The position numbers and the translations under genes were made by a program. Shown here piece by piece: positions 2,139-19,236 of a stretch of 64,000 nucleotides of DNA (the stretch's first letter is position 1; every line of letters begins with the position of its first letter). Location of the stretch: the NCBI GenBank assembly GCA_905235475.1, contig CAJOLU010000005.1, positions 72,892 through 136,891 of the forward strand, written 5' to 3'. The stretch comes from an uncultured Clostridia bacterium (GTDB lineage Bacteria; Bacillota; Clostridia; Christensenellales; UBA1242). The notes beneath the pieces are model-generated. The model made no database searches. It had not been told where the DNA came from and saw only the letters and a program-made list of their open reading frames with translations.

Positions 2139-2149
2139 AGGAGAAAACT

Positions 2150-3857: not shown

Positions 3858-3873
3858 AATGGTATGCTAAAAT
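3845..3873 (+). promoter_or_regulatory. Putative sigma-A promoter of recA (TGGACT-17-TAAAAT)
   Basis: -35 TGGACT at 3845-3850, a 17-nt spacer and -10 TAAAAT at 3868-3873 preceded by TGC. Confidence 0.45.
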
Positions 3874-3874
3874 T

Positions 3875-3888
3875 AGAACAAATGAACG
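3875..3888 (+). promoter_or_regulatory. LexA (Cheo-box-like) operator candidate upstream of recA
   Basis: AGAACAAATGAACG lies directly after the -10. The first 13 nt (AGAACAAATGAAC) recur at 51782-51794 in the recN promoter, and the first half matches the lexA box at 26633. Confidence 0.5.
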
Positions 3889-3906
3889 AAAAGAGGGGAT
3901 TTAATT

Positions 3907-4908: not shown

Positions 4909-4915
4909 TAAATTG

Positions 4916-4955
4916 GACCTAATAGGAAAATATAACTATTGGGTCTTTTATTTTC
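4916..4955 (+). terminator. Rho-independent terminator after recA
   Basis: 10-bp stem GACCTAATAG / CTATTGGGTC (one G.U pair) followed by TTTTATTTT. Confidence 0.55.
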
Positions 4956-5054
4956 AAATAACGCTTGACTTATGAAAATTTTTAAATTAAAATAATAATG
5001 TATAAAATGAACTTTAAGATTTTTATATATATTTTATAAAGGAGATAGCAGAAT

Positions 5055-6647
5055 ATGAACTCAACAAGTGTTATGATGCTTGGTGTTAGTTCAGTTACCT
5101 TTGTTCTATCTGTTGTTGCGGCTTTAATTTTGGGGGCAGTTGCCACTTTTTTCGTTGTTAAATTAATTAGAAAAAAGAAAGCAGAGAAAGCAAAGCAAGA
5201 GGCTAAATTAATAATTGAAAATGCTGAACAAGATGCTAAAAATATTATTAAAGAAGCAAAACTGACAGCACAAGAAAAAGCATTAGATATAAAAACAGAA
5301 GTTGAAAATGAATTAAATTTACGCAGAGTTGAACTTGAAAAACTTAACGATAGATATCTAAAACGTGAAGAATTCATTAACAACAAAGAAGAAATATTAG
5401 AAAAGAAAACAGAAAATATTGAAACACAAAAGCAAGAACTTGATGCAATGGCTGATAACCTTAAAAAGCAGTTTGAGGGGCTTGAGGTTGAAAAGGGAAA
5501 AATATTAGCTGAACTTGAAAGAGTTTCAAAACTTAGTAGAGATGAAGCAAAAACAATTCTTATGAATAAGATGGAAGATGAAGCAAGGCACGATGCATTA
5601 ATTACCTTAAAAAACATTGAGCAAGAAACAAAAGATAATGCAAACAAAAAAGCAACAGAAATTGTTGCACTTGCAATTCAAAAATACTCTGCCGACATCA
5701 CAAGTGAAAACACTGCAACAACAGTTCTTCTTCCAAACGAAGAAATGAAAGGTCGTTTGATTGGAAGGGAAGGAAGAAACATCAAAGCAATAGAACAAGC
5801 AACTGGTGTTGACCTTATTATTGATGACACACCAGAGGCAATTGTTCTCTCAAGTTTTGACCCAGTGAGAAGAGAGATTGCAAAAATTTCCATTGAAAAA
5901 CTTATGCAAGATGGAAGAATCCACCCAGCAAGAATTGAAGAAACTGTTGCAAAAGTAACAAAAGAAATTGAGCAAGAAATGAAAGATGCTGGTGAGCAGG
6001 CTGTTATAGAGGCTGGAGTTCAAAACATTCATCCTGAACTTGTTAAACTTTTGGGAAGAATGAAATATAGAACCAGTTATGGTCAAAATATGTTAAAACA
6101 CAGTTTGGAAGTATCTTTTATGGCTAGAATGATGGCAGAAGAGTTGGGCGTTGATGCAGAAATTGCAAAAAGAGGGGGTCTTCTCCACGATATTGGAAAA
6201 GCAATAGACCACGAGGTTGAGGGAACCCATGTTTCAATTGGTGTTGATCTTGCCAAAAAATATAAAGAAAATAGCAAGGTTATTAACTGTATTGAAGCAC
6301 ATCATGGAGATGTTGAATTTTCTTGCATTGAAGCAGTTCTTGTTCAAGCAGCCGATGTTATTTCTTCAAGCCGTTATGGCGCAAGACGTGAAACAATGGA
6401 AAGTTACATCAAGCGTGTTGAAAAACTTGAAGAAATCTCTAACTCATTTGATGGTGTTGAAAAGGCATATGCTATTCAAGCAGGAAGAGAAGTTAGAATT
6501 ATTGTAAAGCCAGAAGAAATAGATGATGCAAAAGCAATGTTCTTGGCAAAAGATATCGCTAAAAAGATTGAAAGCGAAATGGAATATCCTGGACAAATTA
6601 AAGTTCATGTTATTCGTGAAACAAGAAATGTTGAATATGCAAAATAA
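5055..6647 (+). CDS. rny: Ribonuclease Y
   Basis: N-terminal TM segment, coiled coil, KH domain ([15 protein letters not shown]) and HD domain (LLHDIGKA...HH). Position downstream of recA matches Bacillus. Confidence 0.95.
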
Positions 6648-6688
6648 AAAAGGTTATAAGAGCAAGCCATTTTGAAACTGGCAAAATA

Positions 6689-6720
6689 AAAGAACCTAAA
6701 TTCAAATTAGGTTCTTTTTA
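6689..6720 (+). terminator. Rho-independent terminator after rny
   Basis: Stem AAGAACCTAA / TTAGGTTCTT followed by a T-run. Confidence 0.75.
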
Positions 6721-6772
6721 TATTAGTTTCAAACAACATAAAGTAACACACACTCTCTTGTTTGTGTGAGTA

Positions 6773-6801
6773 TTGACATTTTTCGCTGGTTATGCTATAA
6801 T
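6773..6801 (+). promoter_or_regulatory. Consensus sigma-A promoter (TTGACA-17-TGcTATAAT) for the repeat-protein gene
   Basis: Perfect -35 TTGACA at 6773-6778, a 17-nt spacer, an extended -10 TG and a perfect TATAAT at 6796-6801. Confidence 0.7.
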
Positions 6802-6833
6802 ATACTCAACAAAAAGGTTAGGGGTGAAAAATT

Positions 6834-7547
6834 ATGTTAATGAAAAAAGATAAACAACTTAAATTGACTAAGGAAGATTTTGAAAAATTGATGAAATATG
6901 TGGAAACACACGGCAAAGATGAAAAATTTGATGCTATTCAGCAAATTATAGCAAAAAGAGGAAATGTTGCACAAATTTATAAATTTGCTAAAATAGAAGG
7001 AGCAGATATTGAGGTTCTTTCCCAAGCGATGGCAGAAGAAGCATGTCAACAACTTAGGTATATTAATCATAAACTTATTAAGTCAAACCACCGTTTCTCA
7101 AGATATAACTCGAACGACTTATACAGTACGGTAGGTAACATATATAGGCTTATCTACCGATTTGCTAAAGATATAGAAGGAGCAGATATTGAGGTTCTTT
7201 CTCAAGCGGTTGCAAAAACAAAAGTACCCGATTTTATCTTCGAAGTTGCTAAAATAGAAGGAGCAGATATTGAGGTTCTTTCCCAAGCGATGGCAGAAAC
7301 AAAACATGCACGTCTTATCGAAGAATTTGCTAAAGACATACAAGGGGCAGACATTGCTGTTCTTACCGAGGGGATGGCAAAAACAAAGAATCCTGAGCTT
7401 ATTCTCAGTTTTGCTAGAGAGATAAAAGGAGCCGACATAGCAGTCCTTACCAAGGCGATGGCAAAAACAAAGAATCCTGTGCTTATTCTCAGTTTTGCTA
7501 GAGAGATAAAAGGAGCCGACATGGCAGTCCTTACCAATTCGACTTAA
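6834..7547 (+). CDS. 28-aa tandem-repeat protein, 5' portion of a gene interrupted by an insertion
   Basis: SD AGGGGTGA precedes the start. There are six units of the motif FA(K/R)xIxGADIxVLxxAMAKTKNPxLIxx. The sixth unit is cut at 7537, and the ORF then ends after 3 foreign codons (NST*). Confidence 0.75.
   Translation: MLMKKDKQLKLTKEDFEKLMKYVETHGKDEKFDAIQQIIAKRGNVAQIYKFAKIEGADIEVLSQAMAEEACQQLRYINHKLIKSNHRFSRYNSNDLYSTVGNIYRLIYRFAKDIEGADIEVLSQAVAKTKVPDFIFEVAKIEGADIEVLSQAMAETKHARLIEEFAKDIQGADIAVLTEGMAKTKNPELILSFAREIKGADIAVLTKAMAKTKNPVLILSFAREIKGADMAVLTNST
6984..7537 (+). repeat. Coding tandem repeat, 81-84-bp units R1-R6
   Basis: Units start at 6984, 7161, 7245, 7326, 7410 and 7494. R5 and R6 are almost identical. 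R1 carries a divergent ~41-codon spacer. Confidence 0.9.
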
Positions 7548-7652
7548 AGATTTTGTATGGTTTAATATACTATATATTGTGTTTTAAAATTTATATTTTA
7601 CAATATGTTGTGTGCGTTTTGTGAAATATAATTTTTTTTATTCATTATTTTT

Positions 7653-7748
7653 CAAATTTTGTACTTTTTTTCACACCAAATTTTGTACTTTTTTTGTACT
7701 TTCTATCGGCAAATTAGATTTTTCTATTTTCAAATTTTGTACTTTTTT
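7653..7748 (+). repeat. Three direct copies of CAAATTTTGTACTTTTTT in the left arm of the island
   Basis: Copies lie at 7653-7670, 7677-7694 and 7731-7748, with an extra GTACTTT at 7696-7702. Confidence 0.85.
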
Positions 7749-7846
7749 GTGTTTGCATTATTTTTTGGCAAATATTTTTAAAAACAATTTAAAGACAAAA
7801 ATTTTAACTTATGATATAATTATGGTGATAGAAAAGTGAGGTAATT

Positions 7847-8317
7847 ATGAAATACTTTGTGTCTTCAGATATTCACGGATTTTTTGATGAGTGGATGCTT
7901 GCTTTGAAAAATAGTAATTTTGATATAAACAATCCAGAACATAAAATTATTGTTTGTGGTGATTTGTTTGATAGGGGCAGGCAACCAAAACAAATTATAG
8001 ATTTCATTTTATCTCATAGAGATAAAATAACAGTCATTCGTGGTAACCACGAAGATTTGATGCAAGCAATGATTGATAGAAATAAAAATAATTCAATGGA
8101 TCTGTCTAATGGAACAGCGCAAACAATTGTGGATTTATGTCCAGAGTGGTTAATTAGCAAGTTTGATTTAACAGAGATAGCAAAAGAAACAGGACTTCAA
8201 GAGGTGCTAGATTTATGTGTTGATTATTTTGAAACTAACAAAGTAAAAGATTTAACGATTTTGGGTTGGATTATTTTTAATTTGAAAATTTTTAAATATA
8301 AAAAATTAAAGTTCTGA
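7847..8317 (+). CDS. Metallophosphoesterase (PPP-type Ser/Thr phosphatase-like), probably C-terminally truncated
   Basis: Motifs DIHG, GDLFDRG and GNHE are present. Similarity stops after DYFETNK, where the expected H-containing C-terminal motifs are replaced by a short unrelated tail. Confidence 0.55.
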   Translation: MKYFVSSDIHGFFDEWMLALKNSNFDINNPEHKIIVCGDLFDRGRQPKQIIDFILSHRDKITVIRGNHEDLMQAMIDRNKNNSMDLSNGTAQTIVDLCPEWLISKFDLTEIAKETGLQEVLDLCVDYFETNKVKDLTILGWIIFNLKIFKYKKLKF

Positions 8318-8360
8318 AAAATGAAAAATAATCTTATAACTTTATTTTTTGCAAAAATGC

Positions 8361-8389
8361 TTGACTTTCTTATTCTTCTTGTATATATT
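8361..8389 (+). promoter_or_regulatory. Putative sigma-A promoter of the island operon (TTGACT-17-TATATT)
   Basis: -35 at 8361-8366 and -10 at 8384-8389. The first ATG (8397) lies about 8 nt after the -10 with no SD, so the transcript may be leaderless. Confidence 0.45.
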
Positions 8390-8396
8390 AAAATCA

Positions 8397-9647
8397 ATGA
8401 AAGATTTGATAAAAGTTCTTTTGGTTAGTCCACCCTACAAAGAAAAACAATTACATAAACAAGTTGCTGATTGGGATTTTATAAATGGAGTAAAATATAT
8501 GAATCCTGGTCTTTTAATTACTGCTTCTATACTGGATCAAAACAATATTGAAAATAAAATTATAAAAGTTGACCGCTTGGAGGATATGAGTTGTATTGAT
8601 AAAGAACTTGATTTTTATGGCGATCTTTTGGTTGGCGTTAGTTGTACGTCAGCATGGGAATATCTTGAAGCACTTAGTATATTAGATTATGTGAAAGATA
8701 AGAGAAAAGATGTAACAACATATATTGCAGGTTGGCAAATAAAAAGTATTGGCACAAAGGTTTTTGATGACAGTAAGGCTGTTGATTTTGCTATTTTATC
8801 TGACGCTGAAACAACAACAATGAATTTACTTAATAATTTCAAAAATCTAAATTATCATGATATTGGGATTGTTTCAAGACAAAATAGAGTTATAAAAAAT
8901 GGTAAAACTGATTTTAATTTTCAGGTTATTGATTTTTCAAAATATCCAAATTACAACGATTATATTCCTTTTGTTGAGGATAGCAGAAATTGTCCATATA
9001 GGTGTAATTTTTGTCTTAATTCAGTTGTAAAGGAACGTTATAGAAATGTTCCGCTCGATGTAATAAAAAAGAATATAGAAAATATTGAAAAATTGTATGG
9101 ACCAGAAACTGAAGTAAATTTTTTATCAGCAAATTTTGGAGTGAATGCTCAAAGAACTTTGGAACTTTTAGATTACTTAAATGAGAAAAGGCTAAAGTGG
9201 AATTTTGAGTTTCATGTAGACAATCCTTGGGAAAAATATATAGACAAAATAAAGCTTGCAAATTTAAAAAAATGTAGTATAGGGTTTGAATCAGCAAACA
9301 TATCAACTCTTCAAGCGATGAATAAAACAAGAAATCCAGAAAATTATTTAAAGCGTTTTGATTTGTTAATAAACAAGTTAAACGAAATGGGGATTAAACC
9401 TAGCATAAATGTTTTATACTATCCGTCAGACACGGAGCAATCCATAAAAGATACAAACGACTTTTTAAAAAAGTATGAAGGGAAGTATAGAAAAATAAGA
9501 AAGAATTTTACTATTGGATTTGAAGGGGTTTTAAAAAATTTTGATGGATATAAAACTGAAGAAAATGACTATTTTAAAAAAATTCATGCAAAACCAATTT
9601 GTCCAAAAGGTATGAGTATGAAAGAAACTTTGGATTTGTGTAAATAA
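8397..9647 (+). CDS. Radical SAM enzyme with an N-terminal B12-binding-like domain
   Basis: CxxxCxxC cluster motif CPYRCNFC and an N-terminal IKVLLVSPPY Rossmann-like start typical of class B radical SAM proteins. Start moved to the ATG at 8397, because the TTG at 8349 lies inside the promoter. Confidence 0.75.
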   Translation: MKDLIKVLLVSPPYKEKQLHKQVADWDFINGVKYMNPGLLITASILDQNNIENKIIKVDRLEDMSCIDKELDFYGDLLVGVSCTSAWEYLEALSILDYVKDKRKDVTTYIAGWQIKSIGTKVFDDSKAVDFAILSDAETTTMNLLNNFKNLNYHDIGIVSRQNRVIKNGKTDFNFQVIDFSKYPNYNDYIPFVEDSRNCPYRCNFCLNSVVKERYRNVPLDVIKKNIENIEKLYGPETEVNFLSANFGVNAQRTLELLDYLNEKRLKWNFEFHVDNPWEKYIDKIKLANLKKCSIGFESANISTLQAMNKTRNPENYLKRFDLLINKLNEMGIKPSINVLYYPSDTEQSIKDTNDFLKKYEGKYRKIRKNFTIGFEGVLKNFDGYKTEENDYFKKIHAKPICPKGMSMKETLDLCK

Positions 9648-9671
9648 AAAATTTGTATGAGGATGTAAAAA

Positions 9672-10379
9672 ATGAAATTATCAAAAAAAAACAATTTCAG
9701 CTTTAAAAAAAGATTAAAAAGATTTTTTATAAGGTACAGGGGAAAATATTATGCACAAAATGGTGAAGATATAGTGGTTTGGCAATATTTAAAAAATATA
9801 AAAAACATCCGTGATGTAACATATCTAGATATTGGGTGTGGAGATTGTAAATTTCTTAGCAATACATATTTGTTATATACAATGGGTGCAAGTGGATATG
9901 TCTGTGATGCAAATCAAAATTATGAGAAAAAATATAAAAGGTTAAGACCTAGAGATAAATTTTTGAATTATCTTATAACAAACTCATTAAATCAAAACAA
10001 AAAATTTTTTATAACGGATATGAGAGAACTTAGCACTTGTGATGAAACAAAAATCAAATATTTAACAGAAAATGGATTTAAAATTAAAAGTGAAAAAAAT
10101 GTTCCAACAAAAACACTTAATGAAGTTTGGGGTGAAGTCACAAAGGAAAAAGAAATAGATTTTTTATCATTAGATATTGAATCAGATGAAATCAATCTTT
10201 TGGAAAATCTTGATATGACAAATCATAAACCGATAGTGATTTGTGTTGAAGTTGTTGATTTTGAAACAGGAGAAAACTCATCAAAGACAGAATCGTTTAT
10301 TGAATATATGAAAAAGAAAAATTTCAAAGTTCTTTTGAACACAAAAGTAAATATAATTTTTGTTAGAGAGGGGGGATAA
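9672..10379 (+). CDS. FkbM-family SAM-dependent methyltransferase
   Basis: YAQNGEDIVVWQYL and the glycine-rich LDIGCGDCKF SAM motif, with a size typical of Methyltransf_21 proteins. Confidence 0.6.
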   Translation: MKLSKKNNFSFKKRLKRFFIRYRGKYYAQNGEDIVVWQYLKNIKNIRDVTYLDIGCGDCKFLSNTYLLYTMGASGYVCDANQNYEKKYKRLRPRDKFLNYLITNSLNQNKKFFITDMRELSTCDETKIKYLTENGFKIKSEKNVPTKTLNEVWGEVTKEKEIDFLSLDIESDEINLLENLDMTNHKPIVICVEVVDFETGENSSKTESFIEYMKKKNFKVLLNTKVNIIFVREGG

Positions 10380-10381
10380 AA

Positions 10382-11977
10382 ATGAAAAAAAATTATTTAA
10401 TTATTGGATGTGGACAAATAGGAAAATCTGTTTTAAGTAAAGTTCTAAATAGAGATGATGTTGGAAAGATAATTATTCATAATTTAACAAGTGAGGAAAA
10501 TAAAACCATACAAAAAGTATGTAAAGATGAAAATATTATTTATAGTTATGGAAATATATTTTTCCCAACAAAATATTGTCAAAAAGAAGATTTTAACAAT
10601 GAAGAACTTGAGCAACTCATAAAATATTTTTATGAAGAAAGCGATGAAAATGTAATAAAACAATCAAAACTTTATGAGCTTGTTGAAAAATATAATCCAG
10701 AGGTGATTGTTGATACTATAAATACGGCAACAATTTTTGGAAATAATTTTAAACCTGAAAATACTTTTAAACTATATTTAGAAGATAGTAAAAGGTGTTG
10801 TAAAGAGTTGATGATGGGTGAGTTTGTTACAAAATTTGAAAAATTTATTTCCACTTTAAAGTATTGTATTGAAAATATGGGTGTAAAAAAATATATAAAA
10901 GTTTCAACAACTGGTTTAGGGGGAATGGGTCTTAATATGCCGTATACTCATGGCGACAACCCTAAATCCACATTATCAAATGCTTTAATAGGAAAGATTT
11001 CTGCAAGTGGAACATTTCACCAACTTTTGTGGAATTTATCTCACATACCGAATTTTGATATTGCACTAATTATACCAGCAACTTTTGTGGGTTATGATTT
11101 CTTTGAAAATGGTTTTGTGGAAACGAATATAGGGAATGTATTAGAACAATCAAAATACAATGATTATGACCTAAATAAAACAAAAAAACTATTGTTTAGT
11201 GAAAAAACTGATGAAAAATATATAAAATTTCCAGTAGTAAGAGCGGGAGAAAATCATGTTTATTCAATTAATGAATTAAAAGTTTTGACATCAATTGGCC
11301 AAATGGAGGCGATAACAAAAGAGGAAGTGTCAAATGCTGTCCTGAAAGAGATTGATGGGAAATCAACTTCAAATATTTTGCTTGCACTTGATAAATATGC
11401 GTTAGCTCCAACATATGCTGGAAGAAAAATGATTGAAGAAATACTTGAAAAAAATAAACACACTCCACAAACATATGGAGTTGCAACAGGAAATTTGGGT
11501 GTAAGTTGTGCAAAGCATCTTTATGAACTTTGGTTTGTTAAAAGAATTTACCCAACATTAGAAGATATTTTTAATAAGCAAATTTCTGATGAAAACATCA
11601 ATGTGGCAATCAATAAAATTCTTTTGAGTGACAAAGAAATTATAAAAGAAATTATATCATTAGGAATGCCAGTATTGTATGGAGATAATCAAATAATTTT
11701 AGGTTCATATAGCTTGGTTCCAGAAACTATAAACAATGAAGAATTAACATTATCTGAAATAGAGAATTTTAGTAAAATCGGTTGGGTTGACTTAAGGGCA
11801 AATTCAATCAAAAGTTGGAAGAAAGATATATGTGAAACTATGAAATATTTGCAAGACAAAAAATATTATTTTGATAATTTTGATATTTATTATAACAAAT
11901 TGGTGTTAAATGATTATGATATAGCGGAAATTTTGGGACTTATATATAATAACAAAAATAAACATAGAATAAAATAA
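10382..11977 (+). CDS. NAD(P)-binding Rossmann-fold protein of unknown function
   Basis: N-terminal YLIIGCGQIGKSV dinucleotide-binding motif. The remaining ~480 aa are not recognisable. A strong SD (GAGGGGGGA) lies 2 nt after the preceding stop. Confidence 0.5.
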   Translation: MKKNYLIIGCGQIGKSVLSKVLNRDDVGKIIIHNLTSEENKTIQKVCKDENIIYSYGNIFFPTKYCQKEDFNNEELEQLIKYFYEESDENVIKQSKLYELVEKYNPEVIVDTINTATIFGNNFKPENTFKLYLEDSKRCCKELMMGEFVTKFEKFISTLKYCIENMGVKKYIKVSTTGLGGMGLNMPYTHGDNPKSTLSNALIGKISASGTFHQLLWNLSHIPNFDIALIIPATFVGYDFFENGFVETNIGNVLEQSKYNDYDLNKTKKLLFSEKTDEKYIKFPVVRAGENHVYSINELKVLTSIGQMEAITKEEVSNAVLKEIDGKSTSNILLALDKYALAPTYAGRKMIEEILEKNKHTPQTYGVATGNLGVSCAKHLYELWFVKRIYPTLEDIFNKQISDENINVAINKILLSDKEIIKEIISLGMPVLYGDNQIILGSYSLVPETINNEELTLSEIENFSKIGWVDLRANSIKSWKKDICETMKYLQDKKYYFDNFDIYYNKLVLNDYDIAEILGLIYNNKNKHRIK

Positions 11978-11990
11978 AAGGAACAAAAAA

Positions 11991-13094
11991 ATGAAAAAAT
12001 TACCAGTATATGTTACGGGAGATAGGCCAACAGGAAAATTGCATCTTGGTCATCTTGTCGGGAGTTTGAGAAAAAGAGTTGAAATGCAAAACTCAGGAAA
12101 GTACGATTGTTATGTCTTTATCGCAGACATGCAAGCACTAACAGACAATGCGAAAAATCCAGAAAAAATACGAAAAAATGTGCTTGAAGTTGCTTTGGAT
12201 TATTTGTCGGTTGGAGTTGATCCTAAAAAAAGTACAATATTTTTACAATCACAAGTGCCACAACTTTGTGAACTTACATTTATATATTTAAATTTGGTAA
12301 CAGTTTCAAGGTTGGAGCGTAATCCGACAGTAAAAAATGAAATAAAAGAAAAAGGTTTTAAAACAAACATACCAGCAGGATTTTTGGTTTATCCAGTAAG
12401 TCAAGCAGCAGATACAACAGCATTTTTAGCGAATTATATTCCAACAGGGGAAGATCAACTTCCTGTCACTGAGCAAGGTAGAGAAATTGTTCGAACTTTT
12501 AATAGTATTTATGGTGATGTCCTAGTTGAAGCTGAAGGTGTTTTGGCAGACTCTGATAAATGCTATAGACTTCCAGGGATTGATGGAAAAGGGAAGATGA
12601 GCAAATCGCTTGGTAATGCTATATATCTTTCTGATGATACTGAAACAGTGAGGAAAAAAGTTTTTGACATGTATACAGATCCAGAGCATATAACAGTTGA
12701 TATGCCTGGTCATGTAAAAGGCAATATTGTATTTACATATTTGGATGCTTTTGCTACGCCAGAGTCCTTTAAAAAGTTTTTGCCTAACGATAATTATACA
12801 TGTTTAGATGATATGAAAAAGCATTATGAGAAGGGCGGGCTTGGTGATGTTAAAATAAAGAAATTTCTTTTTGATATAATTGAGGATATTTTGCAACCAA
12901 TTAGAGAAAAAAGAAGATATTATGAACAAAATATTGATGAAGTAATTCAAATTTTAAAAGATGGTAGTGAACAGGCAAGAATAGTTGCATCTCAAACTGT
13001 TAAAAAAGTAAGAAAGGCAATGGGGATTGAATATTTTGAAGATGATGCCCTGATTGAATATTATAAAAATAAATTTCACGAAAATGGAGAGTAA
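11991..13094 (+). CDS. trpS: Tryptophan--tRNA ligase (class Ic)
   Basis: HIGH motif GKLHLGH, FIADMQALTDN, GEDQ and KMSKS (GKMSKSLGNAI). No T-box leader; the gene is embedded in the operon. Confidence 0.85.
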   Translation: MKKLPVYVTGDRPTGKLHLGHLVGSLRKRVEMQNSGKYDCYVFIADMQALTDNAKNPEKIRKNVLEVALDYLSVGVDPKKSTIFLQSQVPQLCELTFIYLNLVTVSRLERNPTVKNEIKEKGFKTNIPAGFLVYPVSQAADTTAFLANYIPTGEDQLPVTEQGREIVRTFNSIYGDVLVEAEGVLADSDKCYRLPGIDGKGKMSKSLGNAIYLSDDTETVRKKVFDMYTDPEHITVDMPGHVKGNIVFTYLDAFATPESFKKFLPNDNYTCLDDMKKHYEKGGLGDVKIKKFLFDIIEDILQPIREKRRYYEQNIDEVIQILKDGSEQARIVASQTVKKVRKAMGIEYFEDDALIEYYKNKFHENGE

Positions 13095-13096
13095 TC

Positions 13097-14815
13097 ATGA
13101 GAATTTATGGAAATGGTGGATTTGGGAAAAAGGCTGAAATGTTATATTTGCTGAAGAAAACTTTTCCACATCTTGCTGATTTTATTCCTAAATCGTATAT
13201 TATAGATTCAAGTGTTTTTGATCAAATAATGGCAAAAAACAACAAAGATGAAATAAAAACTTGTGAGGATATTCAAATTGATGATGAACTTTTAAATAAA
13301 GTTTATGGTGAAGTTATTAGTTATTTTAAAGATGCGCCATTAGTTTTTAGAAGTTCAGCATTTATAGAAGATACAGTTTTATTTAGTGCTTCCGGTCAAT
13401 ATAAAACTTGTGTTAACATAAAAAATAAAAATGAAGCAAAACTTGCATTACAGAAAATTTATTTTTCAATGCTTAACCGAAATGCGAAAATTTACGAGGA
13501 CTCATTTAATCTTGCTTCAGGAATAAATAAAATGTCTATTTTGGTTCAGGAGCTTATGATTGTTGATATGGCTGGAGTTTTGTTTTCTGTTAATCCAATA
13601 AATGGTGAGCATGAAACAATAATTGAATACGAAAAAGGAAATGGTGTGAATATTGTTGCTGGTTCAGCACCAGCGGTGGAAAGAATTGTTATAAAAAATG
13701 ATAATATATCAAAATCTTTGCCGGATTTTAAAAAGCTTTATGAAATATCAAAAGAGATAAAAGATTTTTTAGGATATGAAATTGATTTTGAATGGGGAAT
13801 AAAAGATGGAAAAATATATATTTTTCAGGTAAGGCCTTGCAAAATCTCTCTAAAAAAGACTGAATTTACTGATTATGAATGTGATGAAATTATTCCATGT
13901 GAAGTGTTTTCTCGAGGATATGCTATTGGCAAGATTAATTCCAGGGATAAGCTTGAGGACTACAATATTATAGGGGATATTAGAAAATTTGAAGCAGATA
14001 ATATTGAATTAATTCAAAAATCTTCTGGCTTGATTGTGAATGTGGGTGGATATTTATCTCATATCGCAAATATCTGTAGAGAGTTTGAAAAAGTTTTTGT
14101 CCGATGTGAAAAAGAATTTAAACAAGGTGAAATTGTTTTTATAGATGGTTTTAAAGGTCAAATTATGCCTTTAAAAAGCATAAAGAAAAACTTTGCGAAA
14201 GTTTTTTGGGATACTTTTTTATATCAAGCTAGGCAAATAAATAGTTTATCCATAAAATCAAACGGCATAATTTCAGCAAATTATGAACATGTTTGGGAAA
14301 TTGTATTTTTTGATTTTGATGAAGAAAAACTAATTTCGAAGCTGAAGGAGAAGGGTTTTTGCTGTAAGGAGCAAGTTAAAAAATATCAAACGTATGATTA
14401 TGAGAATAAAGATTTAATAAAAGAAAACATGGAATTTCGAATATCGCAAACAAATGAAGAAACCGTAATACAGCTTAAATCATTTAATACCTCAGAAACA
14501 ACAAATTTTAGATTTGACAGAAGTATGAAGCTCTATTTTCAGAACGAAAAATATGCAAAAAAATATATGAAAAATTTAGGTGTTATACAAACCGGAACCT
14601 TTGAAAGACATGAGAAACTTTTTCAAAGTCCGACAAATGACGTCCTGGTTAAATTCTTGAAATGGTCTGGTAAAAATGTTTATATTGGAATTGAATCAAA
14701 TAATATTTCAAATATACAGCATTTTATGAGTGAGTTTGGGTTAAGTGTTGACAACTCAGACAATATTGGTGGTGTTGAAATATTTAAAAAATTAAATATA
14801 AATTTTGTGGAGTGA
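13097..14815 (+). CDS. PEP-synthase/PPDK-like phosphotransferase (ATP-grasp plus phosphohistidine swivel) fused to a CYTH-like C-terminal domain
   Basis: PPDK_N-like GGFGKKAEMLYLL and FRSSAFIEDT..FSASGQYKT. The swivel-domain motif is GGYLSHIANICREF. The C-terminal ~200 aa show an alternating charged beta-strand pattern (EIVFFDFDE ... NVYIGIESN) reminiscent of CYTH. Confidence 0.6.
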   Translation: MRIYGNGGFGKKAEMLYLLKKTFPHLADFIPKSYIIDSSVFDQIMAKNNKDEIKTCEDIQIDDELLNKVYGEVISYFKDAPLVFRSSAFIEDTVLFSASGQYKTCVNIKNKNEAKLALQKIYFSMLNRNAKIYEDSFNLASGINKMSILVQELMIVDMAGVLFSVNPINGEHETIIEYEKGNGVNIVAGSAPAVERIVIKNDNISKSLPDFKKLYEISKEIKDFLGYEIDFEWGIKDGKIYIFQVRPCKISLKKTEFTDYECDEIIPCEVFSRGYAIGKINSRDKLEDYNIIGDIRKFEADNIELIQKSSGLIVNVGGYLSHIANICREFEKVFVRCEKEFKQGEIVFIDGFKGQIMPLKSIKKNFAKVFWDTFLYQARQINSLSIKSNGIISANYEHVWEIVFFDFDEEKLISKLKEKGFCCKEQVKKYQTYDYENKDLIKENMEFRISQTNEETVIQLKSFNTSETTNFRFDRSMKLYFQNEKYAKKYMKNLGVIQTGTFERHEKLFQSPTNDVLVKFLKWSGKNVYIGIESNNISNIQHFMSEFGLSVDNSDNIGGVEIFKKLNINFVE

Positions 14816-14821
14816 TAATTT

Positions 14822-15574
14822 ATGAAAAGAAAAGTTGTTATTTTAACAGATTGTATTGATGTTGCCTTTAACGAGATAAGGGGGGCAATATTTCAAAATG
14901 CATCAAATGATGAATTTGAAATTGAGCCAGTAGTAAAGGTTGATTCTTACAATATAGAAAATGTAAATTTTTTAGTTAAGTTGGTGGCAGAAATTTACCC
15001 AGAAGGAACTGTGATCTGCGTTATTGTGAATCCCTTAAAAATTAGAACAGAGAGAATAGTTGGAAGAACAAAAAAGAAAAATTTAATTTTTGAGGGAACA
15101 AACACTGGAGCATTTGATTGGCTCATCAAGGATTTTGGATGTAGTGAACTTTATGAGCTTTTTGATCCTGGATTTGTTCCTTTTGGTGGAAAATATGTCC
15201 ATGCGCCAGCTGTTGGAAAACTATTAAGTGGGAAAAAGTTAAGTGAACTTGGGAATATTTTTCCACTTGAAAAAGTAAGAAAGGTTGATATGGAAGAAAG
15301 CTGTATTTTGCATATTGACAACTTTGGAAACTTAAAGCTAAATCATAAATTAAAAGAGCATAATGAAGGTGACTTTTTAGAGGTGTTCATAAATAACAAA
15401 AAAATGACAATGAAATATGCTAAAAGAATGATGGCACTTGATGATGGTGAAATAATAATTTATCCAGGAAGTTCGTTTGGACTTACTGAAATTGGTATTG
15501 TTCGCGGAAATTTTGCTGAAACATTTGGCGTACAATATGGAGACAAGATAAAAATTAAGGAGTCTATTAAATGA
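14822..15574 (+). CDS. SAM hydroxide adenosyltransferase family protein (DUF62; fluorinase/chlorinase-like)
   Basis: N-terminal VVILTDCIDVAFNEIRG and C-terminal HIDNFGNLKLN match the family pattern LxTDFG...xxDxFGNxxTN. Confidence 0.6.
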   Translation: MKRKVVILTDCIDVAFNEIRGAIFQNASNDEFEIEPVVKVDSYNIENVNFLVKLVAEIYPEGTVICVIVNPLKIRTERIVGRTKKKNLIFEGTNTGAFDWLIKDFGCSELYELFDPGFVPFGGKYVHAPAVGKLLSGKKLSELGNIFPLEKVRKVDMEESCILHIDNFGNLKLNHKLKEHNEGDFLEVFINNKKMTMKYAKRMMALDDGEIIIYPGSSFGLTEIGIVRGNFAETFGVQYGDKIKIKESIK

Positions 15575-16530
15575 AGGATGTTATGATTACTGGAGCGAGA
15601 CCAACTGGTGCTTTGCATTGGGGACATTATATTAGTGTTTTTAAGAATTTATCTAAGCTACAAAATGATTTCAATACATTTTTTGTGGTTTCAGATGTTC
15701 ATTTTTTAACCACTAAAACAACACCTGATCAAATAAAAATGATAAAACCAAATACAATAAAAATGATTCTTGACTTAATTGCTATTGGGATGGATCCTAT
15801 CAATACAACTTTTTATCTTCAATCAAAAGCCCCATCTCATGGTAATATTTATTATCTGATACAAAATTTTATAGATTCACAAATGCTTTATAATCCGAGC
15901 ATTATTGAAATGGAAAAACATTCAAAAACAAAACCATCTTTAGGACTTTTGGCTTATTCAGTTCTTGAAAGTGCTGATATTTTGGGGATTGGAGCAAAAA
16001 AGGTTCCTGTTGGATTTGATAATATAGAGCATGTAAATATAACAAATAAAATTATTGACAAAATAAATACTACTTTTGGTTCGGACATTCAAAAACCAGA
16101 AGCGATAATATCTGCTGAGACAACAAAACTTATTGGAACGGATGGTTATGAAAAAATGAGTAAAAGTTTGGGTAATTCCATAAATATCGGTGATTCAAGG
16201 GAAATACTTGTTAAAAAGATAAGAGAAATGAAATGGAATGATGATGAAAATCATAATGCTCTTTTGCAATATACAAAACTTTTTGATTTAAATAAATATC
16301 AGATATTTAGAGAAAAAGGTAGAGATGCAACAAAAGAAATAAAAGATTTTTTAATTGAAAATTTTTCAAAAGAAAATTATAAGTTTGAAAATCGTGTTGC
16401 ACCGTATAAAGAAGATGAGAATTTAATAATTGAACTTTTGAAAAAGGGAAGCGAAATTGCTGAACAGAGATATTTAAAAATGTTTCAGAATTTGAAAAAT
16501 ATATTAGGAATGTGGGATTTAACTAAATAA
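15571..16530 (+). CDS. Divergent TrpRS-like class I aminoacyl-tRNA ligase paralogue
   Basis: GARPTGALHWGHY (HIGH changed to HWGH), VSDVHFLT, GFDN in place of GEDQ, and an intact KMSKS. It overlaps the preceding gene by 4 nt (ATGA). Confidence 0.7.
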   Translation: MKDVMITGARPTGALHWGHYISVFKNLSKLQNDFNTFFVVSDVHFLTTKTTPDQIKMIKPNTIKMILDLIAIGMDPINTTFYLQSKAPSHGNIYYLIQNFIDSQMLYNPSIIEMEKHSKTKPSLGLLAYSVLESADILGIGAKKVPVGFDNIEHVNITNKIIDKINTTFGSDIQKPEAIISAETTKLIGTDGYEKMSKSLGNSINIGDSREILVKKIREMKWNDDENHNALLQYTKLFDLNKYQIFREKGRDATKEIKDFLIENFSKENYKFENRVAPYKEDENLIIELLKKGSEIAEQRYLKMFQNLKNILGMWDLTK

Positions 16531-16593
16531 AAATGAGTAAAAACAAGAGGTATTAAATTATTTTTAAGTTTTGTCATTTTATGGTGAAAATGA

Positions 16594-17118
16594 ATAAAAG
16601 ATAATTATGAACTCATCAATGTTGCTGTAACTAGAGCAAAAACAAAATTGGTTATTGCTGCAGATTGTGAATGCGTTGATAAACTCTCAGATAAGAAAGA
16701 TAATTTATATAATTTGGTTCAATATACAAAAAATAATGGTAATATTGTCGTTTCAGCGAATGAATCAATTAAGATTGAGATAGGTAAGTCAAACGGAAGT
16801 GCTTATGAAGATGAATTTTTTAAAACAGTTTCTCATTTCTGTTCTTGCCATAAAACTTTTGAAGCAGAACGAAATGTTAAGATTTCAAAACTATTTAAAA
16901 ATGAAAATATAAATAGCAATATGGAATTCGATTTAGTCATATATGAAAAAGTTTTATTTAGAAAAAAACCAGTAATAGTTTTTGAAATTTATGGCTGAGA
17001 ATATTTTGGAACTTTGCCTAGAGAAATGTCTGATAGAAGGAAGATGGGGATATGTAAAAACAATGGAGTGAAACTTATTTTTTCCCAAACAATTTTGTTA
17101 AGGCGTATGAATATATAG
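16594..17118 (+). pseudogene. Remnant of an SF1 helicase C-terminus plus an endonuclease-like (DUF559/Vsr-like) domain
   Basis: Begins mid-gene with helicase motif VI ELINVAVTRAKTKLVIA and has no N-terminal helicase core. An in-frame TGA at 16996 (FEIYG*EYFG) breaks the C-terminal domain. Confidence 0.6.
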
Positions 17119-17193
17119 CAGATATAATTCTATCATCTAAAGATAAGAACAAAAGTATTCAGCAATCAATGTTTGATGATGAAATAATATAAA

Positions 17194-17223
17194 AAATCAC
17201 CCATAAAATAGGGTGATTTTTTG
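17194..17223 (+). terminator. Rho-independent terminator at the right end of the island
   Basis: Stem ATCACCC / GGGTGAT followed by TTTTTT. Confidence 0.7.
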
Positions 17224-17229
17224 TTCATT

Positions 17230-17274
17230 TGGAGCTACTGATGGGAATCGGACCCATGACCCCCACCTTACCAA
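17230..17274 (-). other. 3' half of a tRNA-Thr(GGT), from anticodon loop to CCA (att-site remnant)
   Basis: The reverse complement reads TTGGTAA GGTGG GGGTC ATGGG TCCGATT CCCAT CAGTAGC T CCA: anticodon loop, 3' stem, variable loop, T arm, acceptor strand and CCA. No D arm or 5' acceptor strand follows. Confidence 0.7.
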
Positions 17275-17452
17275 GGCGATGGCAAAAACAAAGAATAAAG
17301 ATTGTCTAAATGAGATAAAATTTATTAATGACAATTATTTAAAAAATGAATTGCCAGCAGATGTTGATGATATAATAGCAACTGCAAAAGTTCGAAAGGT
17401 AGCATCAAAAGAAGCGCAACAATCAACGAAAAATCCAACACTAAAAAGATAA
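17266..17452 (+). pseudogene. 3' portion of the interrupted repeat-protein gene
   Basis: Encodes LTKAMAKTKN, completing repeat R6, followed by a unique 50-aa tail. Nt 17266-17296 are 31/31 identical to 7445-7475. The track ORF 17213-17452 is a read-through from the tRNA fragment. Confidence 0.75.
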
Positions 17453-17513
17453 TGAATTAAATGTGATTTTGCGAAAATAATAACTAATTTTTATTTTTAT
17501 CATATATAATTTT

Positions 17514-18332
17514 ATGTTAAAAATTTGTGACGCACATAATGATTTGTTATATAAATATAAAACAAAACAAAATATTCAAAAGTATATAAATAAATTGCCA
17601 CAAAACATAGAAAAAATATTTTGTGCCTACTTTTCATATAACAACAGCAGTGCTAGTGTTTTTGATATGAAGAAAAAGTTTTCATATCTTTTGAGTGAAA
17701 AGTGTGTTAGAACAATTGAAAATGCTTGGTTCATTAATAAAGAAAATTTTATGAGCATTATAGAAAATGATGTGTTTTGCGCAACCCTTTGTCACAACAA
17801 AAATAATGCTTTATGTGGTGGGGCAGAAGATAATGGAGAAATAACTCAACTTGGCAATTTTATAATTCAAAAATTAGAAAAGAATAATGTTATAGTTGAC
17901 ACAGCGCATATGAACGAGAAATCTTTTTGGCAATTTGTTCATTTAACTCAAAAGCCAATATTTAATTCTCATAGCGGTTTTTATTCAATTTTTTCACATA
18001 ATAGAAACTTAAAAACAAGTCAAATAAACGAAATTGTGAGTAGCGGTGGTTATATTGGATTGGCAATGTATCCAAAGTTTTTTACAAATAATTCATATGG
18101 AATTGGTGACATTGCTAAAAATATAATATGGTTTTGGGAAAACTTTGGAACAAACACTCTTGGGTTTGGAACAGATTTTAATGGAATTAACAACTATCCC
18201 ACTAATTTGCATAACTATTTTGATTTATTGACGCTTGCACAAAAATTAATTGAATTTGGTGCAAATAGGGAAGACATTAATAAACTCTTTAGCGAGAATT
18301 TACTGGAATTTTATAAAAAAATAAAAGCCTAG
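17514..18332 (+). CDS. Membrane dipeptidase (peptidase M19 family)
   Basis: N-terminal CDAHNDL metal-binding motif, then DTAHM, FNSHS and FGTDFNG. Confidence 0.7.
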   Translation: MLKICDAHNDLLYKYKTKQNIQKYINKLPQNIEKIFCAYFSYNNSSASVFDMKKKFSYLLSEKCVRTIENAWFINKENFMSIIENDVFCATLCHNKNNALCGGAEDNGEITQLGNFIIQKLEKNNVIVDTAHMNEKSFWQFVHLTQKPIFNSHSGFYSIFSHNRNLKTSQINEIVSSGGYIGLAMYPKFFTNNSYGIGDIAKNIIWFWENFGTNTLGFGTDFNGINNYPTNLHNYFDLLTLAQKLIEFGANREDINKLFSENLLEFYKKIKA

Positions 18333-18348
18333 TGTTAGGCTTTTATTC
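18322..18348. terminator. Bidirectional hairpin between convergent genes
   Basis: Stem AAAGCCTA / TAGGCTTT with an A-run on the left and a T-run on the right. It overlaps both stop codons. Confidence 0.55.
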
Positions 18349-18600
18349 TTCAACCGTGACATCTTCATCATCATAAACATAACCTTCTTGTCTTAAAGCA
18401 TCTTTGGTTGAGGTTGGGTCACTTATTATTTTTGTGGACTGTTCTAGTTCACTTTCTTTTAGGGCTAGTTCGTTATTGGCGTTTCTATTGTTGGTTCTCA
18501 AAACACTTAGTGCAATAAATTGAGCAAGGAGAATAACGAGCAAAAATATTGCAACGCATAATATTAATATAAATCTTGATTTCGATAAATTTTTATACAT
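18343..18600 (-). CDS. Septum formation initiator family protein (FtsB/DivIC-like)
   Basis: Single N-terminal TM segment, a short coiled coil, and a C-terminal ALRQEGYVYDDEDV similar to the family ending. Confidence 0.5.
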   Translation of the reverse strand: MYKNLSKSRFILILCVAIFLLVILLAQFIALSVLRTNNRNANNELALKESELEQSTKIISDPTSTKDALRQEGYVYDDEDVTVEE

Positions 18601-19162: not shown

Positions 19163-19236
19163 AGGGGAGTGGCTTAACGGTAGAGTAGTGGTCTCCAAAA
19201 CCATTGGTCAGAGTTCGATTCTCTGCTCCCCTGCCA
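19163..19236 (+). tRNA. tRNA-Trp (anticodon CCA)
   Basis: Cloverleaf readable by eye: acceptor AGGGGAG/CTCCCCT, anticodon loop CTCCAAA, T arm AGAGTTCGATTCTCT, and an encoded CCA. Confidence 0.9.

Follow-up and report, generated by a model that had tools for sequence, protein, structure and literature searches.

What is made, and for what use, when two tryptophanyl-tRNA synthetase (TrpRS) genes are packed into one operon with genes for a radical S-adenosylmethionine (SAM) enzyme, a methyltransferase, an oxidoreductase, a phosphohistidine enzyme and a DUF62 protein? This question is raised by a stretch of 64,000 nucleotides (nt) from an uncultured Clostridia bacterium (GenBank contig CAJOLU010000005.1, positions 72,892 to 136,891), referred to below as the window. 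According to the open reading frame (ORF) listing of the window, seven + strand ORFs run in the same direction at 8397-16530, with spacers of 24, 2, 13, 2 and 6 nt and one 4-nt overlap. They encode, in this order, a radical SAM enzyme, an FkbM-family methyltransferase, an Ind2-family (PF27054) oxidoreductase, a full-length TrpRS (TrpRS1), a fusion of a phosphohistidine enzyme with a CYTH fold (PPDK-CYTH), a divergent DUF62 protein, and a short TrpRS-like paralogue (TrpRS2) (Table 1). The operon had been described in a first-pass annotation made from the DNA letters; its coordinates and gaps were reproduced exactly, and Pfam and NCBIfam agree with the domain assignments given there for all seven proteins.

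We read this operon as a horizontally acquired biosynthetic unit for a small molecule derived from tryptophan (Trp), in which the early steps would follow a course like that of the indolmycenic-acid arm in the biosynthesis of indolmycin and chuangxinmycin. We hold this reading at even chances. Gene content, folds, conservation of the set and its mobility are matters of observation and are described first.

A core gene set recurs in other contexts

A core set consisting of a TrpRS-II-type gene, a gene for a short TrpRS-like paralogue, a PPDK-CYTH gene and a gene for a DUF62 protein lacking the family's catalytic triad was found in at least 13 other contexts (loci L006, L086-88, L090/91, L092/93, L094, L095, L096, L097, L098, L100, L101, L102 and L103). 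The recurring core is accompanied by a 2-oxoacid reductase and a methyltransferase. Gene orders are shuffled, flanks differ, and the GC content ranges from 26% to 63%. The first-pass annotation had suggested a neighbourhood search for DUF62, TrpRS and PPDK_N, with ordinary scattered housekeeping genes as the outcome that would speak against a unit. The co-occurrence of the three in these contexts excludes that outcome, and the Trp-centred functional unit that had been proposed now appears as a conserved, horizontally moving gene set. Because the set is conserved elsewhere, the grouping is beyond chance, which could not be said from the window alone. No description of this gene combination was found in the literature searched (full text), in line with the earlier remark that no described pathway of this kind was known.

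Compared with the window proteins, DUF62, the best-conserved protein of the cluster, shows 57-70% identity, TrpRS1 about 60%, the Ind2-like protein 38-49%, the radical SAM enzyme 43-48%, TrpRS2 38-43% and the PPDK-like protein 28-33%. Three unrelated families occupy the reductase slot, namely PF27054, Ldh_2 (L101, 2e-77) and Ldh_1 (L103), all of them families of NAD(P)H-dependent 2-oxoacid reductases. The methyltransferase slot holds a B12 radical SAM enzyme in most relatives and a class I enzyme in L102. TrpRS2 is present as a core gene in all relatives, and the DUF62 gene adjoins the PPDK-CYTH gene in nearly all contexts, almost always directly 3' of it. The PPDK-CYTH gene in turn overlaps the start of the Ind2-like gene in L102 and L104. 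Two Aminotran_1_2 genes are found in L102, two ABC exporter fusions in L101, and two copies of the TrpRS-II-type gene in L086 and L094-96, where they flank the Ind2-like gene. The family of the FkbM protein was confirmed, but its gene, earlier listed among the members of the operon, is accessory, being confined to the window and L103 among the contexts seen.

Further accessory genes recur near the clusters of relatives. In four contexts, the cluster is preceded at a distance of 12-51 nt by the gene of a RelA/SpoT homologue (RSH; 479 aa; HD_4, RelA_SpoT and TGS domains). Nudix, ApaH-like phosphoesterase and NTP_transf_5 genes are also found repeatedly. L097 has a 150-aa Metallophos ORF 3' of the cluster, which shares only 35% identity over 69 residues with the 156-aa phosphoesterase ORF of the window. 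A protein of 363-393 aa with no Pfam match is common to L092 and L101 (28% identity, 1e-42), and a nucleotidyltransferase-like NTP_transf_5 protein of about 550 aa is encoded in L092, L101 and L103.

The operon is a mobile unit

The cluster in the window is flanked by two copies, 9821 nt apart, of a perfect 31-nt direct repeat (CCTTACCAAGGCGATGGCAAAAACAAAGAAT). When 6834-7475 is joined to 17297-17452, one uninterrupted 266-codon ORF of a protein with 84-nt tandem repeats results. Because its removal restores this ORF, the 9.8-kb segment between the repeats interrupts a gene. At 28.3%, the GC content of the segment is below the 32.4% of the remaining window and ties for the lowest value among 9.8-kb stretches. 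The segment consists of the seven operon genes, the phosphoesterase ORF and a doubtful 116-aa ORF, and no integrase was found within it. In L086-88, the cluster is cargo of an element of about 16 kb (within 1-18600) that splits the gene for penicillin-binding protein 5 (PBP5), a D-Ala-D-Ala carboxypeptidase (Peptidase_S11). This element carries two serine recombinases, a Schlafen/AlbA_2 ATPase (PADLOC pAgo-associated model, 1e-46) and a helix-turn-helix protein. The cluster was absent from the viral contigs searched, and plasmid searches gave no support for a plasmid location. The operon is a horizontally acquired, mobile unit.

Beside the right repeat, at 17229-17265 on the - strand, the DNA resembles the 3' half of a tRNA (T-arm ATGGG-TCCGATT-CCCAT, acceptor strand, CCA). 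This candidate remnant is tentative and was set aside, the likeness being one seen by eye and the Rfam tRNA model scoring 13.4 bits with an E value of 5.7.

Methylation and reduction

The radical SAM enzyme matches PF04055 at 1.6e-13 and has the motif CPYRCNFC. Its best NCBIfam matches are B12-binding radical SAM methyltransferases, partial and far below the cut-offs, and a sequence search of the PDB gave no match. PF02310 (B12-binding) is recorded for orthologues of the enzyme, with some of the matches weak.

The 531-aa protein had first been described as a Rossmann protein. The Rossmann fold was borne out, and the assignment can now be narrowed to a probable Ind2-family reductase on the basis of a precomputed Pfam match to PF27054 ("Beta_methylindole_red_C"). 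In its AlphaFold model (pLDDT 87.5), a Rossmann domain resembling those of extended short-chain dehydrogenases/reductases is followed by a novel C-terminal domain. Foldseek matches were ketoreductases and nucleotide-sugar dehydratases/epimerases with TM scores of only about 0.25, which are low because the C-terminal half is without a solved relative; a profile search of PDB sequences returned N-terminal Rossmann matches only. Assignment as a 2-oxoacid reductase is supported by the replacement of PF27054 by Ldh_2 or Ldh_1 in relatives. The same replacements point to a 2-hydroxy acid route, and TsrM-like methylation of Trp itself, which had been named as a precedent, is a less likely start.

PF27054-type proteins form a large family, with at least 594 matches in one-genome-per-species contigs. 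In Calditrichota, Marinimicrobia and related phyla, distant members occur in the conserved order trpS-scpA-scpB-rluB-[PF27054]-cmk (L008, L015, L022, L027, L030, L031, L035, L040, L050, L056, L073 and others). The proximity of TrpRS to distant PF27054 genes at 15 environmental loci was considered as a functional link and discarded when Pfam revealed this housekeeping order. Further contexts of the distant members were uninformative. Two more cluster types, L004 and L089, have a member of the Ind2-like clade of gut Firmicutes next to TrpRS-like genes.

An Ind2-like gene is also found paired with a Mem_trans gene (auxin-efflux-carrier family) alone, in L083-L085 (Clostridium sp. CAG:557 type; protein P0065, indexed in 1102 blocks). 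The pair abounds in public gut data and might represent a simpler indolepyruvate/indolelactate module.

Two TrpRS-type proteins with different motif sets

TrpRS1 scored 224.5 bits with TIGR00233, above the cut-off of 176.75, and so reaches the score of a curated trpS product. Its best match in the PDB is Deinococcus radiodurans TrpRS II (362 bits, about 55-60% identity). An extra TrpRS copy of the kind found in antibiotic clusters had been postulated earlier, and TrpRS1 indeed belongs to the auxiliary TrpRS-II type, which includes D. radiodurans TrpRS II and the indolmycin-resistant auxiliary enzymes and is distinct from the usual bacterial TrpRS (PMC9437257). It differs from the D. radiodurans enzyme by an insertion of about 11 residues ('PEHFxKYLP' region), which is found in the TrpRS1 copies of the core clusters, and no nitric oxide synthase gene lies nearby.

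The HIGH, KMSKS and GxDQ motifs and the indole-binding Asp are kept in TrpRS1. The alignment places a Gln of TrpRS1 opposite His43 of B. stearothermophilus TrpRS. In the B. stearothermophilus enzyme, the methylamino nitrogen of indolmycin is bound by His43 (bioRxiv 10.64898/2026.03.23.713518). The seven TrpRS-II-type proteins examined (330-387 aa; window, L004, L006, L086, L089, L090) are all devoid of Trp residues, which the cluster proteins other than TrpRS1 do contain. This lack of Trp was probably inherited by the type as a whole, as a lineage trait, and would free synthesis of the enzyme from dependence on the supply of Trp-tRNA.

TrpRS2 scored 168.2 bits, under the TIGR00233 cut-off. It retains HxGH, KMSKS and the indole-binding Asp, with GxDQ changed to GxDN, and lacks 'TDPxH..PG' and 'GGLGD', the tRNA-side motifs after KMSKS and in the C-terminal domain. 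Judged by these motifs, TrpRS2 probably still forms an adenylate. No second trpS was found in the 64-kb window. In L086-88, a host copy of trpS is likely, because the cluster there sits on an integrated element that splits the PBP5 gene.

A phosphohistidine enzyme with a triphosphate-tunnel domain and a DUF62 protein without its triad

PPDK-CYTH matches PF01326 at 9e-28 and PF00391 at 6e-6, with 1KBL as a Foldseek match (1.6e-14). Its ATP-grasp and swivelling domains align with PEP (phosphoenolpyruvate) synthase, and Ser321-His322 is invariant or nearly so across 30 sequences. The ATP-grasp domain, the swivelling His domain and the catalytic Ser-His pair are common to PPDK-CYTH and to PEP synthase, PPDK, rifampin phosphotransferase and PigC. 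The third domain is a TIM barrel or a rifampin-binding domain in that family, whereas in PPDK-CYTH it has a CYTH/triphosphate-tunnel fold. PPDK-CYTH has no PF02896 match and no PEP/pyruvate TIM barrel at its C terminus, and the isolated C-terminal domains of five orthologues gave no Pfam match, CYTH/PF01928 included. The AlphaFold model (pLDDT 88.7 overall, above 90 in the C-terminal domain) and Foldseek agree with the first-pass annotation in placing a CYTH-like tail in the last 180 or so residues (TMt 0.74-0.79, root-mean-square deviation 2.6-3.7), the matches being 7NS9 (E 8e-10, TMt 0.74), 3N10 (TMt 0.79) and 2FJT.

The ExExK motif is degenerate in this tail: the strand reads E401-x-V403-x-F405, with Glu401 as the sole invariant residue of the motif. 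The basic residues of the tunnel, R448, K461, R472 and R504, do not vary among the 30 sequences. This residue pattern is suggestive of an acceptor site that binds anions or phosphate, more than of a hydrolase. The architecture is rare, with about 29 full-length clusters at 50% identity among the best 150 matches of an exhaustive HMMER search of 1.84 billion representatives. A word-indexed homologue search, with a single sequence or with five, returned generic PEP synthases only and missed known PPDK-CYTH orthologues, which the HMMER search recovered. We know of no described member of the PEP synthase/PPDK family with this fusion.

The DUF62 protein has both Pfam halves, SAM_HAT_N and SAM_HAT_C. 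Its similarity to solved members is weak (HMMER, 44 bits to 2ZBU and 31 bits to PH0463). The fold halves are shared with FlA, SalL, SAM hydroxide adenosyltransferase and (R)-SAM hydrolase, and the N-terminal 'LTD' ribose-binding region can be recognised by eye in the alignment. An Asp/Arg/His triad defines SAM hydrolases (PMC10491745). In the cluster protein, unlike in these enzymes, the triad Asp is replaced by Asn70 and the triad His by Gly, as read from the weak 31-44-bit alignments, and both replacements are invariant in five orthologues. Judging from this pattern, the protein may rely on a different nucleophile or serve as a partner without catalytic activity. It represents a distinct and highly conserved DUF62 subfamily that is confined to this cluster type.

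Linkage to tRNA-Trp

The window has a single tRNA gene, for tRNA-Trp(CCA), which lies beyond the repeat-bounded segment, 2.6 kb downstream of the cluster; an association with the cluster is possible. In L006 and L090, a tRNA-Trp(CCA) gene lies on the same strand as the cluster, at most about 20 nt upstream of its first gene. No terminator was apparent in the alignment of this gap, for which no terminator scan was run. The flanks of L006 and L090 are unrelated to each other, and adjacency by chance is unlikely. It suggests either co-expression in support of the extra synthetase or a Trp-tRNA-dependent step. All three tRNA-Trp genes are ordinary G73/CCA genes, and no tRNA was found within 10 kb in most other contexts. 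The public gene call for the Ind2-like protein of L090 (P0004) opens inside the tRNA and thereby acquires a spurious N-terminal extension.

A possible pathway and its precedents

Indolmycenic acid is made by a transaminase, by Ind1, and then by Ind2, an NADH-dependent ketone reductase (PMC8246080). Ind1, a class I SAM-dependent C-methyltransferase, acts on indolepyruvate in this route (PMC8246080). The indolmycin clusters (ind0-ind8 of Streptomyces griseus; also Pseudoalteromonas luteoviolacea) have in common with the window cluster a TrpRS gene (Ind0; AJT38681 in S. griseus). An Ind2-family ketone reductase, C-methylation and an ATP-dependent late step would also be common to both. Both would draw on an aminotransferase, in trans or clustered, and would follow the logic of Trp to indolepyruvate to a methylated 2-hydroxy acid (PMC8246080). 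Indolmycin biosynthesis also has an arginine arm, with the pyridoxal phosphate (PLP) oxidase Ind4 and the imine reductase Ind5, whereas 7476-17265 of the window contains neither a PLP enzyme nor an imine reductase. Because arginine-processing genes are missing, a dehydroarginine-derived oxazolinone is not expected from the window cluster. Indolmycin biosynthesis further uses an ATP-dependent coupling enzyme, Ind3, with a partner, Ind6; PPDK-CYTH and the DUF62 protein, whose genes adjoin each other in nearly all contexts, are candidate counterparts of this pair. In place of Ind1, the window has the B12-type radical SAM enzyme and FkbM, and a class I enzyme is found only in L102. A second TrpRS-like gene and the DUF62 gene are additions relative to indolmycin, and the host is an anaerobe of low GC content and gut type. 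With the arginine arm and an Ind1-type methyltransferase both lacking, the cluster is not to be filed as an indolmycin cluster.

The chuangxinmycin cluster (cxn) of Actinoplanes tsinanensis contains a TrpRS resistance gene, a cobalamin radical SAM enzyme (CxnA) and a ketoacid reductase step (PMC5925218), to which TrpRS1, the radical SAM enzyme and the reductase of the window are putative counterparts. CxnA, a methyltransferase, has been proposed to act on the beta carbon of a Trp-derived intermediate (PMC5925218). The chuangxinmycin reductase is of the PanE type, however, and the sulfur-carrier, JAMM and P450 genes of that cluster are absent here, as are PPDK-CYTH, DUF62 and the second TrpRS-like gene from cxn. 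In a third group, aminoacyl-tRNA synthetase (aaRS) paralogues, namely AcmF (ascamycin) and SbzA (SB-203208), put an amino acid from aminoacyl-tRNA onto an adenylate-like scaffold (PMC12945691, PMC13518217). The products inhibit the cognate aaRS, and the producers hold resistant copies (PMC12945691, PMC13518217). As here, the aaRS paralogue lies inside the biosynthetic cluster. AcmF and SbzA are AlaRS- and IleRS-like, in contrast to TrpRS2, and no sulfamate or sulfonamide genes are present in the window cluster; it is the tRNA-Trp linkage alone that suggests use of Trp-tRNA by TrpRS2. By analogy with all these systems, the cluster would work like aaRS-inhibitor clusters with self-resistance and is probably a new variation on them.

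The succession of amino acid, 2-oxo acid, optional C-methylation and 2-hydroxy acid is drawn from the way in which the reductase and methyltransferase slots, the aminotransferases and the exporters fit together. The link to Trp is drawn from the two conserved TrpRS-type genes and from the gut-Firmicute PF27054 clade beside TrpRS-like genes. Each chemical step, the target and the immunity are what we infer from this. Trp would first be converted into indole-3-pyruvate by a housekeeping aminotransferase; in one relative, the cluster itself includes aminotransferase genes. The intermediate would then be C-methylated by the cobalamin-type radical SAM enzyme, or in one relative by the class I methyltransferase, and the Ind2-family reductase would turn the 2-oxo group into that of a 2-hydroxy acid. 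His322 of PPDK-CYTH would receive a phosphoryl group from ATP, to be delivered to a substrate in the basic CYTH tunnel, which may be the hydroxy acid or a phosphate- or nucleotide-bearing partner. TrpRS2, with its adenylation motifs kept, and the DUF62 protein may do or guide a final coupling, possibly of the Trp-derived piece to an adenosine-derived piece. In the lineage of the window, FkbM would add a late methyl group. TrpRS1 would keep the producer translating despite a TrpRS-targeting product, a plausible self-resistance role, and it may also supply Trp-tRNA in lineages where a co-transcribed tRNA-Trp gene heads the operon.

A more specific proposal, which we consider rather unlikely, is that the clusters make a new class of mimics of tryptophanyl-adenylate (or of the 3' end of Trp-tRNA) in strictly anaerobic gut and rumen bacteria. 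TrpRS2 would activate a methylated indole-lactate or a Trp unit, possibly taken from the co-transcribed tRNA-Trp. This unit would be joined to an adenosine-derived piece that the triad-less DUF62 protein supplies or holds and that the PPDK-CYTH phosphotransferase phosphorylates, and the TrpRS-II-type copy would give immunity. The idea is speculation by analogy with AcmF and SbzA (PMC12945691); the tRNA-Trp linkage and the CYTH domain lend it some weight.

Weighing the proposed pathway against other explanations

Several observations speak against a Trp-derived product with self-resistance. The early steps are drawn from comparative genomics; beyond the reductase, none of the steps can be assigned. 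The name of PF27054 alone does not fix a substrate, and Ind2 itself is presumably a member, as the Pfam name, which derives from beta-methylindole-pyruvate reductase, and EC 1.1.1.397 suggest. Distant PF27054 members (about 26% identity; Bacteroidota/Ignavibacteria group) occur in unrelated housekeeping contexts. The Gln at the His43 position is common to the whole TrpRS-II type, D. radiodurans included; being a trait of the entire type, it is not a cluster-specific adaptation. With no other trpS in 64 kb, TrpRS1 could be the sole TrpRS of a reduced genome. The repeat-bounded segment contains no aminotransferase, transporter or regulator. A SAM-cleaving role of the DUF62 protein, assumed in the first-pass annotation, is not established, because two residues of the Asp/Arg/His triad are lost. 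The accessory genes of relatives (RelA/SpoT-HD-TGS, Nudix, ApaH-like, NTP_transf_5) have a flavour of nucleotide signalling.

This last point leads to the thought that the cluster is a nucleotide-signalling or stress/defence system, in which an adenosine-based alarmone is made or destroyed according to the status of Trp or tRNA-Trp. The CYTH fold, typical of enzymes acting on triphosphates and nucleotides, would suit such a role, as would the RSH with its TGS domain directly upstream in L086, L094, L096 and L097, the recurrence of Nudix and ApaH-like phosphoesterase genes, and the mobile element in L086, which puts the cluster beside a Schlafen/pAgo-like ATPase. However, the ExExK motif of the CYTH domain is degenerate, with Glu401 alone kept, and RSH, Nudix and phosphoesterase genes are not universal. 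PADLOC gave no meaningful match, with none at all for five of the seven proteins and only the generic PDC-M51A (37 bits) for the radical SAM enzyme, and the viral contigs searched lack the cluster. Given also that 2-oxoacid reductases, methyltransferases, aminotransferases and ABC exporters would be unexpected in a signalling module, we regard this explanation as distinctly improbable. A chance neighbourhood of ordinary housekeeping genes, for which one could point to the distant PF27054 homologue that lies near trpS in Calditrichota and Marinimicrobia merely through housekeeping order, is scarcely credible: the same five or six families stand together in all the contexts described above, with varied orders, flanks and GC content, their spacings are operon-like, and the segment in the window is bounded by repeats and interrupts a gene.

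The genes might, instead, form a module centred on tRNA. They would make or salvage a Trp analogue, or turn gut indolelactate or indolepyruvate into a Trp-like amino acid, and a dedicated TrpRS/tRNA-Trp pair would handle the analogue, for a tRNA-dependent transformation or for translation accuracy. Such a module would account for the tRNA-Trp(CCA) genes, which immediately precede the cluster in L006 and L090 and are 2.6 kb from it in the window. TrpRS1 is closest to D. radiodurans TrpRS II, which is reported to partner nitric oxide synthase on modified Trp (PMC9437257), and clustering of tRNA-quality-control genes is known from producers of non-canonical amino acids (PMC13149037); genes of the editing-domain families tRNA_edit and B3_4 do adjoin related clusters (L094 and L089, respectively), and Ind2-like genes stand beside Mem_trans or SNF transporters in L004 and Clostridium sp. 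CAG:557. On the other hand, the tRNAs are ordinary in G73 and CCA, with no sign of recoding or orthogonality, and most contexts have none within 10 kb. Salvage needs no radical SAM enzyme, kinase-CYTH fusion or second TrpRS-like protein, and the hydroxy-acid reductase, the ABC exporters and the mobile, patchy distribution better fit an exported secondary metabolite. On balance, we think a tRNA-centred module unlikely, and keep to the Trp-derived product as the working explanation.

Transcription and annotation of the window operon

A single promoter-like site had been proposed for the operon. The pattern exists at 8361-8389, but such patterns are not enriched in the AT-rich DNA of the window (59 found, 70 expected), so that the site carries little weight. 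A better promoter-like site, with a TG extension, lies at 7792-7820, 5' of the 156-aa phosphoesterase ORF, which is possibly the first gene of the transcription unit. In the intergenic DNA 5' of this ORF, at 7649-7748, TTTTCAAATTTTGTACTTTTTT occurs three times (two copies exact), resembling an operator or iteron array. A Shine-Dalgarno sequence is visible before every operon gene except the radical SAM gene, and none is present between the site at 8361-8389 and the ATG at 8397. For the radical SAM gene, a TTG at 8349 is an alternative start; the ATG at 8397 is most likely correct, because tblastn alignments to orthologues open at residue 1 of this form.

No T-box(Trp), SAM or other leader or riboswitch was found at the cluster in the window or in eight related loci. 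The sole T-box of the window, at 41939-42151 (-; 113.5 bits), precedes pheS and pheT (40879-41901 and 38469-40868), and none is located at either TrpRS gene. In a sibling public record (proteins P0304, P0307 and P0310), the TGA stops that end the PPDK-like and DUF62 genes have been translated as Trp, with products of 573 aa (PPDK-like) and 295 aa (DUF62) and a TrpRS2 cut to 281 aa, apparently the result of annotation with code 4. Code 11 is correct for the window, since TGA serves there as an ordinary stop (in 8 of 45 genes) and no gene contains it in frame.

Table 1. Features of the window and of related loci. Coordinates are those of the respective locus.
Feature	Locus	Coordinates	Strand	Remarks
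31-nt direct repeat, left copy	window	7445..7475	+	inside gene of 84-nt-repeat protein, 6834-7547
Short metallophosphoesterase, ApaH/PrpE-like N-terminal half	window	7847..8317	+	156 aa; good ribosome-binding site, own promoter-like site
Promoter-like site	window	8361..8389	+	TTGACT-17-TATATT; 10/12 consensus positions; ends 7 nt 5' of ATG 8397
Radical SAM enzyme, cobalamin-binding methyltransferase kind	window	8397..9647	+	416 aa; CxxxCxxC
FkbM-family methyltransferase	window	9672..10379	+	235 aa; PF05050
Ind2-family (PF27054) NAD(P)-type oxidoreductase	window	10382..11977	+	531 aa; predicted 2-oxoacid (indolepyruvate-type) reductase
TrpRS1	window	11991..13094	+	367 aa; full-length, TrpRS-II type
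PPDK-CYTH	window	13097..14815	+	572 aa; ATP-grasp (PPDK_N), swivelling phosphohistidine domain, C-terminal CYTH/triphosphate-tunnel fold
Divergent DUF62 (SAM_HAT) protein	window	14822..15574	+	250 aa
TrpRS2	window	15571..16530	+	319 aa; short TrpRS-like paralogue
Doubtful ORF	window	16648..16998	+	116 aa; TTG start, no ribosome-binding site, no homologue at any related locus
Palindromic terminator-like hairpin	window	17191..17222	.	A and T runs on either side; likely end of transcription unit
31-nt direct repeat, right copy	window	17266..17296	+	in frame with 79-aa ORF 17213-17452 (3' remainder of split gene)
tRNA-Trp(CCA)	window	19163..19236	+	
tRNA-Trp(CCA)	L006	9896-9969		
tRNA-Trp(CCA)	L090	9987-10060		
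RelA/SpoT homologue	L086	7424-8863		
RelA/SpoT homologue	L094	7429-8868		
RelA/SpoT homologue	L096	7427-8869		
RelA/SpoT homologue	L097	4003-5442		
Accessory protein, 363-393 aa	L092	10999-12180		
Accessory protein, 363-393 aa	L101	11062-12153		
NTP_transf_5 protein, about 550 aa	L092	14788-16452		
NTP_transf_5 protein, about 550 aa	L101	15788-17467		
NTP_transf_5 protein, about 550 aa	L103	236-1777		
Related cluster	L006			goat-colon metagenome-assembled genome; core set
Related cluster	L090/91			core set
Related cluster	L092/93			shuffled gene order
Related clusters	L094, L095, L096			flanks differ between the three
Related clusters	L097, L098, L100, L101			metagenome loci
Related cluster	L102			63% GC; TrpRS1-like, TrpRS2-like, class I methyltransferase, PPDK-like overlapping Ind2-like gene, aminotransferase
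Related cluster, continued	L102		opposite	second aminotransferase and DUF62 gene
Related cluster	L103			26% GC; NTP_transf_5, O-methyltransferase, Ldh_1, PPDK-like, DUF62, TrpRS2-type, FkbM
Related cluster	L104			PPDK-like gene overlapping Ind2-like gene
Further cluster type	L004			Ind2-like and TrpRS-like with SNF and Mem_trans transporters, PLP decarboxylase
Further cluster type	L089			Ind2-like and TrpRS-like with nonribosomal peptide synthetase-like protein, MetK, two radical SAM enzymes, methyltransferase, B3_4 protein

Implications

Indolmycin and chuangxinmycin are TrpRS inhibitors and validated antibacterial leads. To our knowledge, the sources of such inhibitors have so far been limited to aerobic actinomycetes and a single marine proteobacterium. 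If the proposed pathway is true, uncultured anaerobes of the gut and rumen would be the source of a TrpRS inhibitor that is a new natural compound. Its producers would engage in interference competition in the gut through inhibition of translation, by a logic shared with Ind0 and Ind2 and with different late enzymes. Were the product a mimic of tryptophanyl-adenylate, a microbiome-derived TrpRS inhibitor would come together with two new enzyme activities: a phospho-acceptor site in a CYTH domain, and a DUF62 protein with a nucleophile that is neither water nor halide, or with a gatekeeper role.

For the enzyme families concerned, the cluster raises the questions of how a phosphohistidine group is delivered to a CYTH tunnel, what a triad-less DUF62 protein does, and whether TrpRS2 performs a ligation. 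The three-way non-orthologous replacement of the reductase provides a comparative handle on the function of PF27054.

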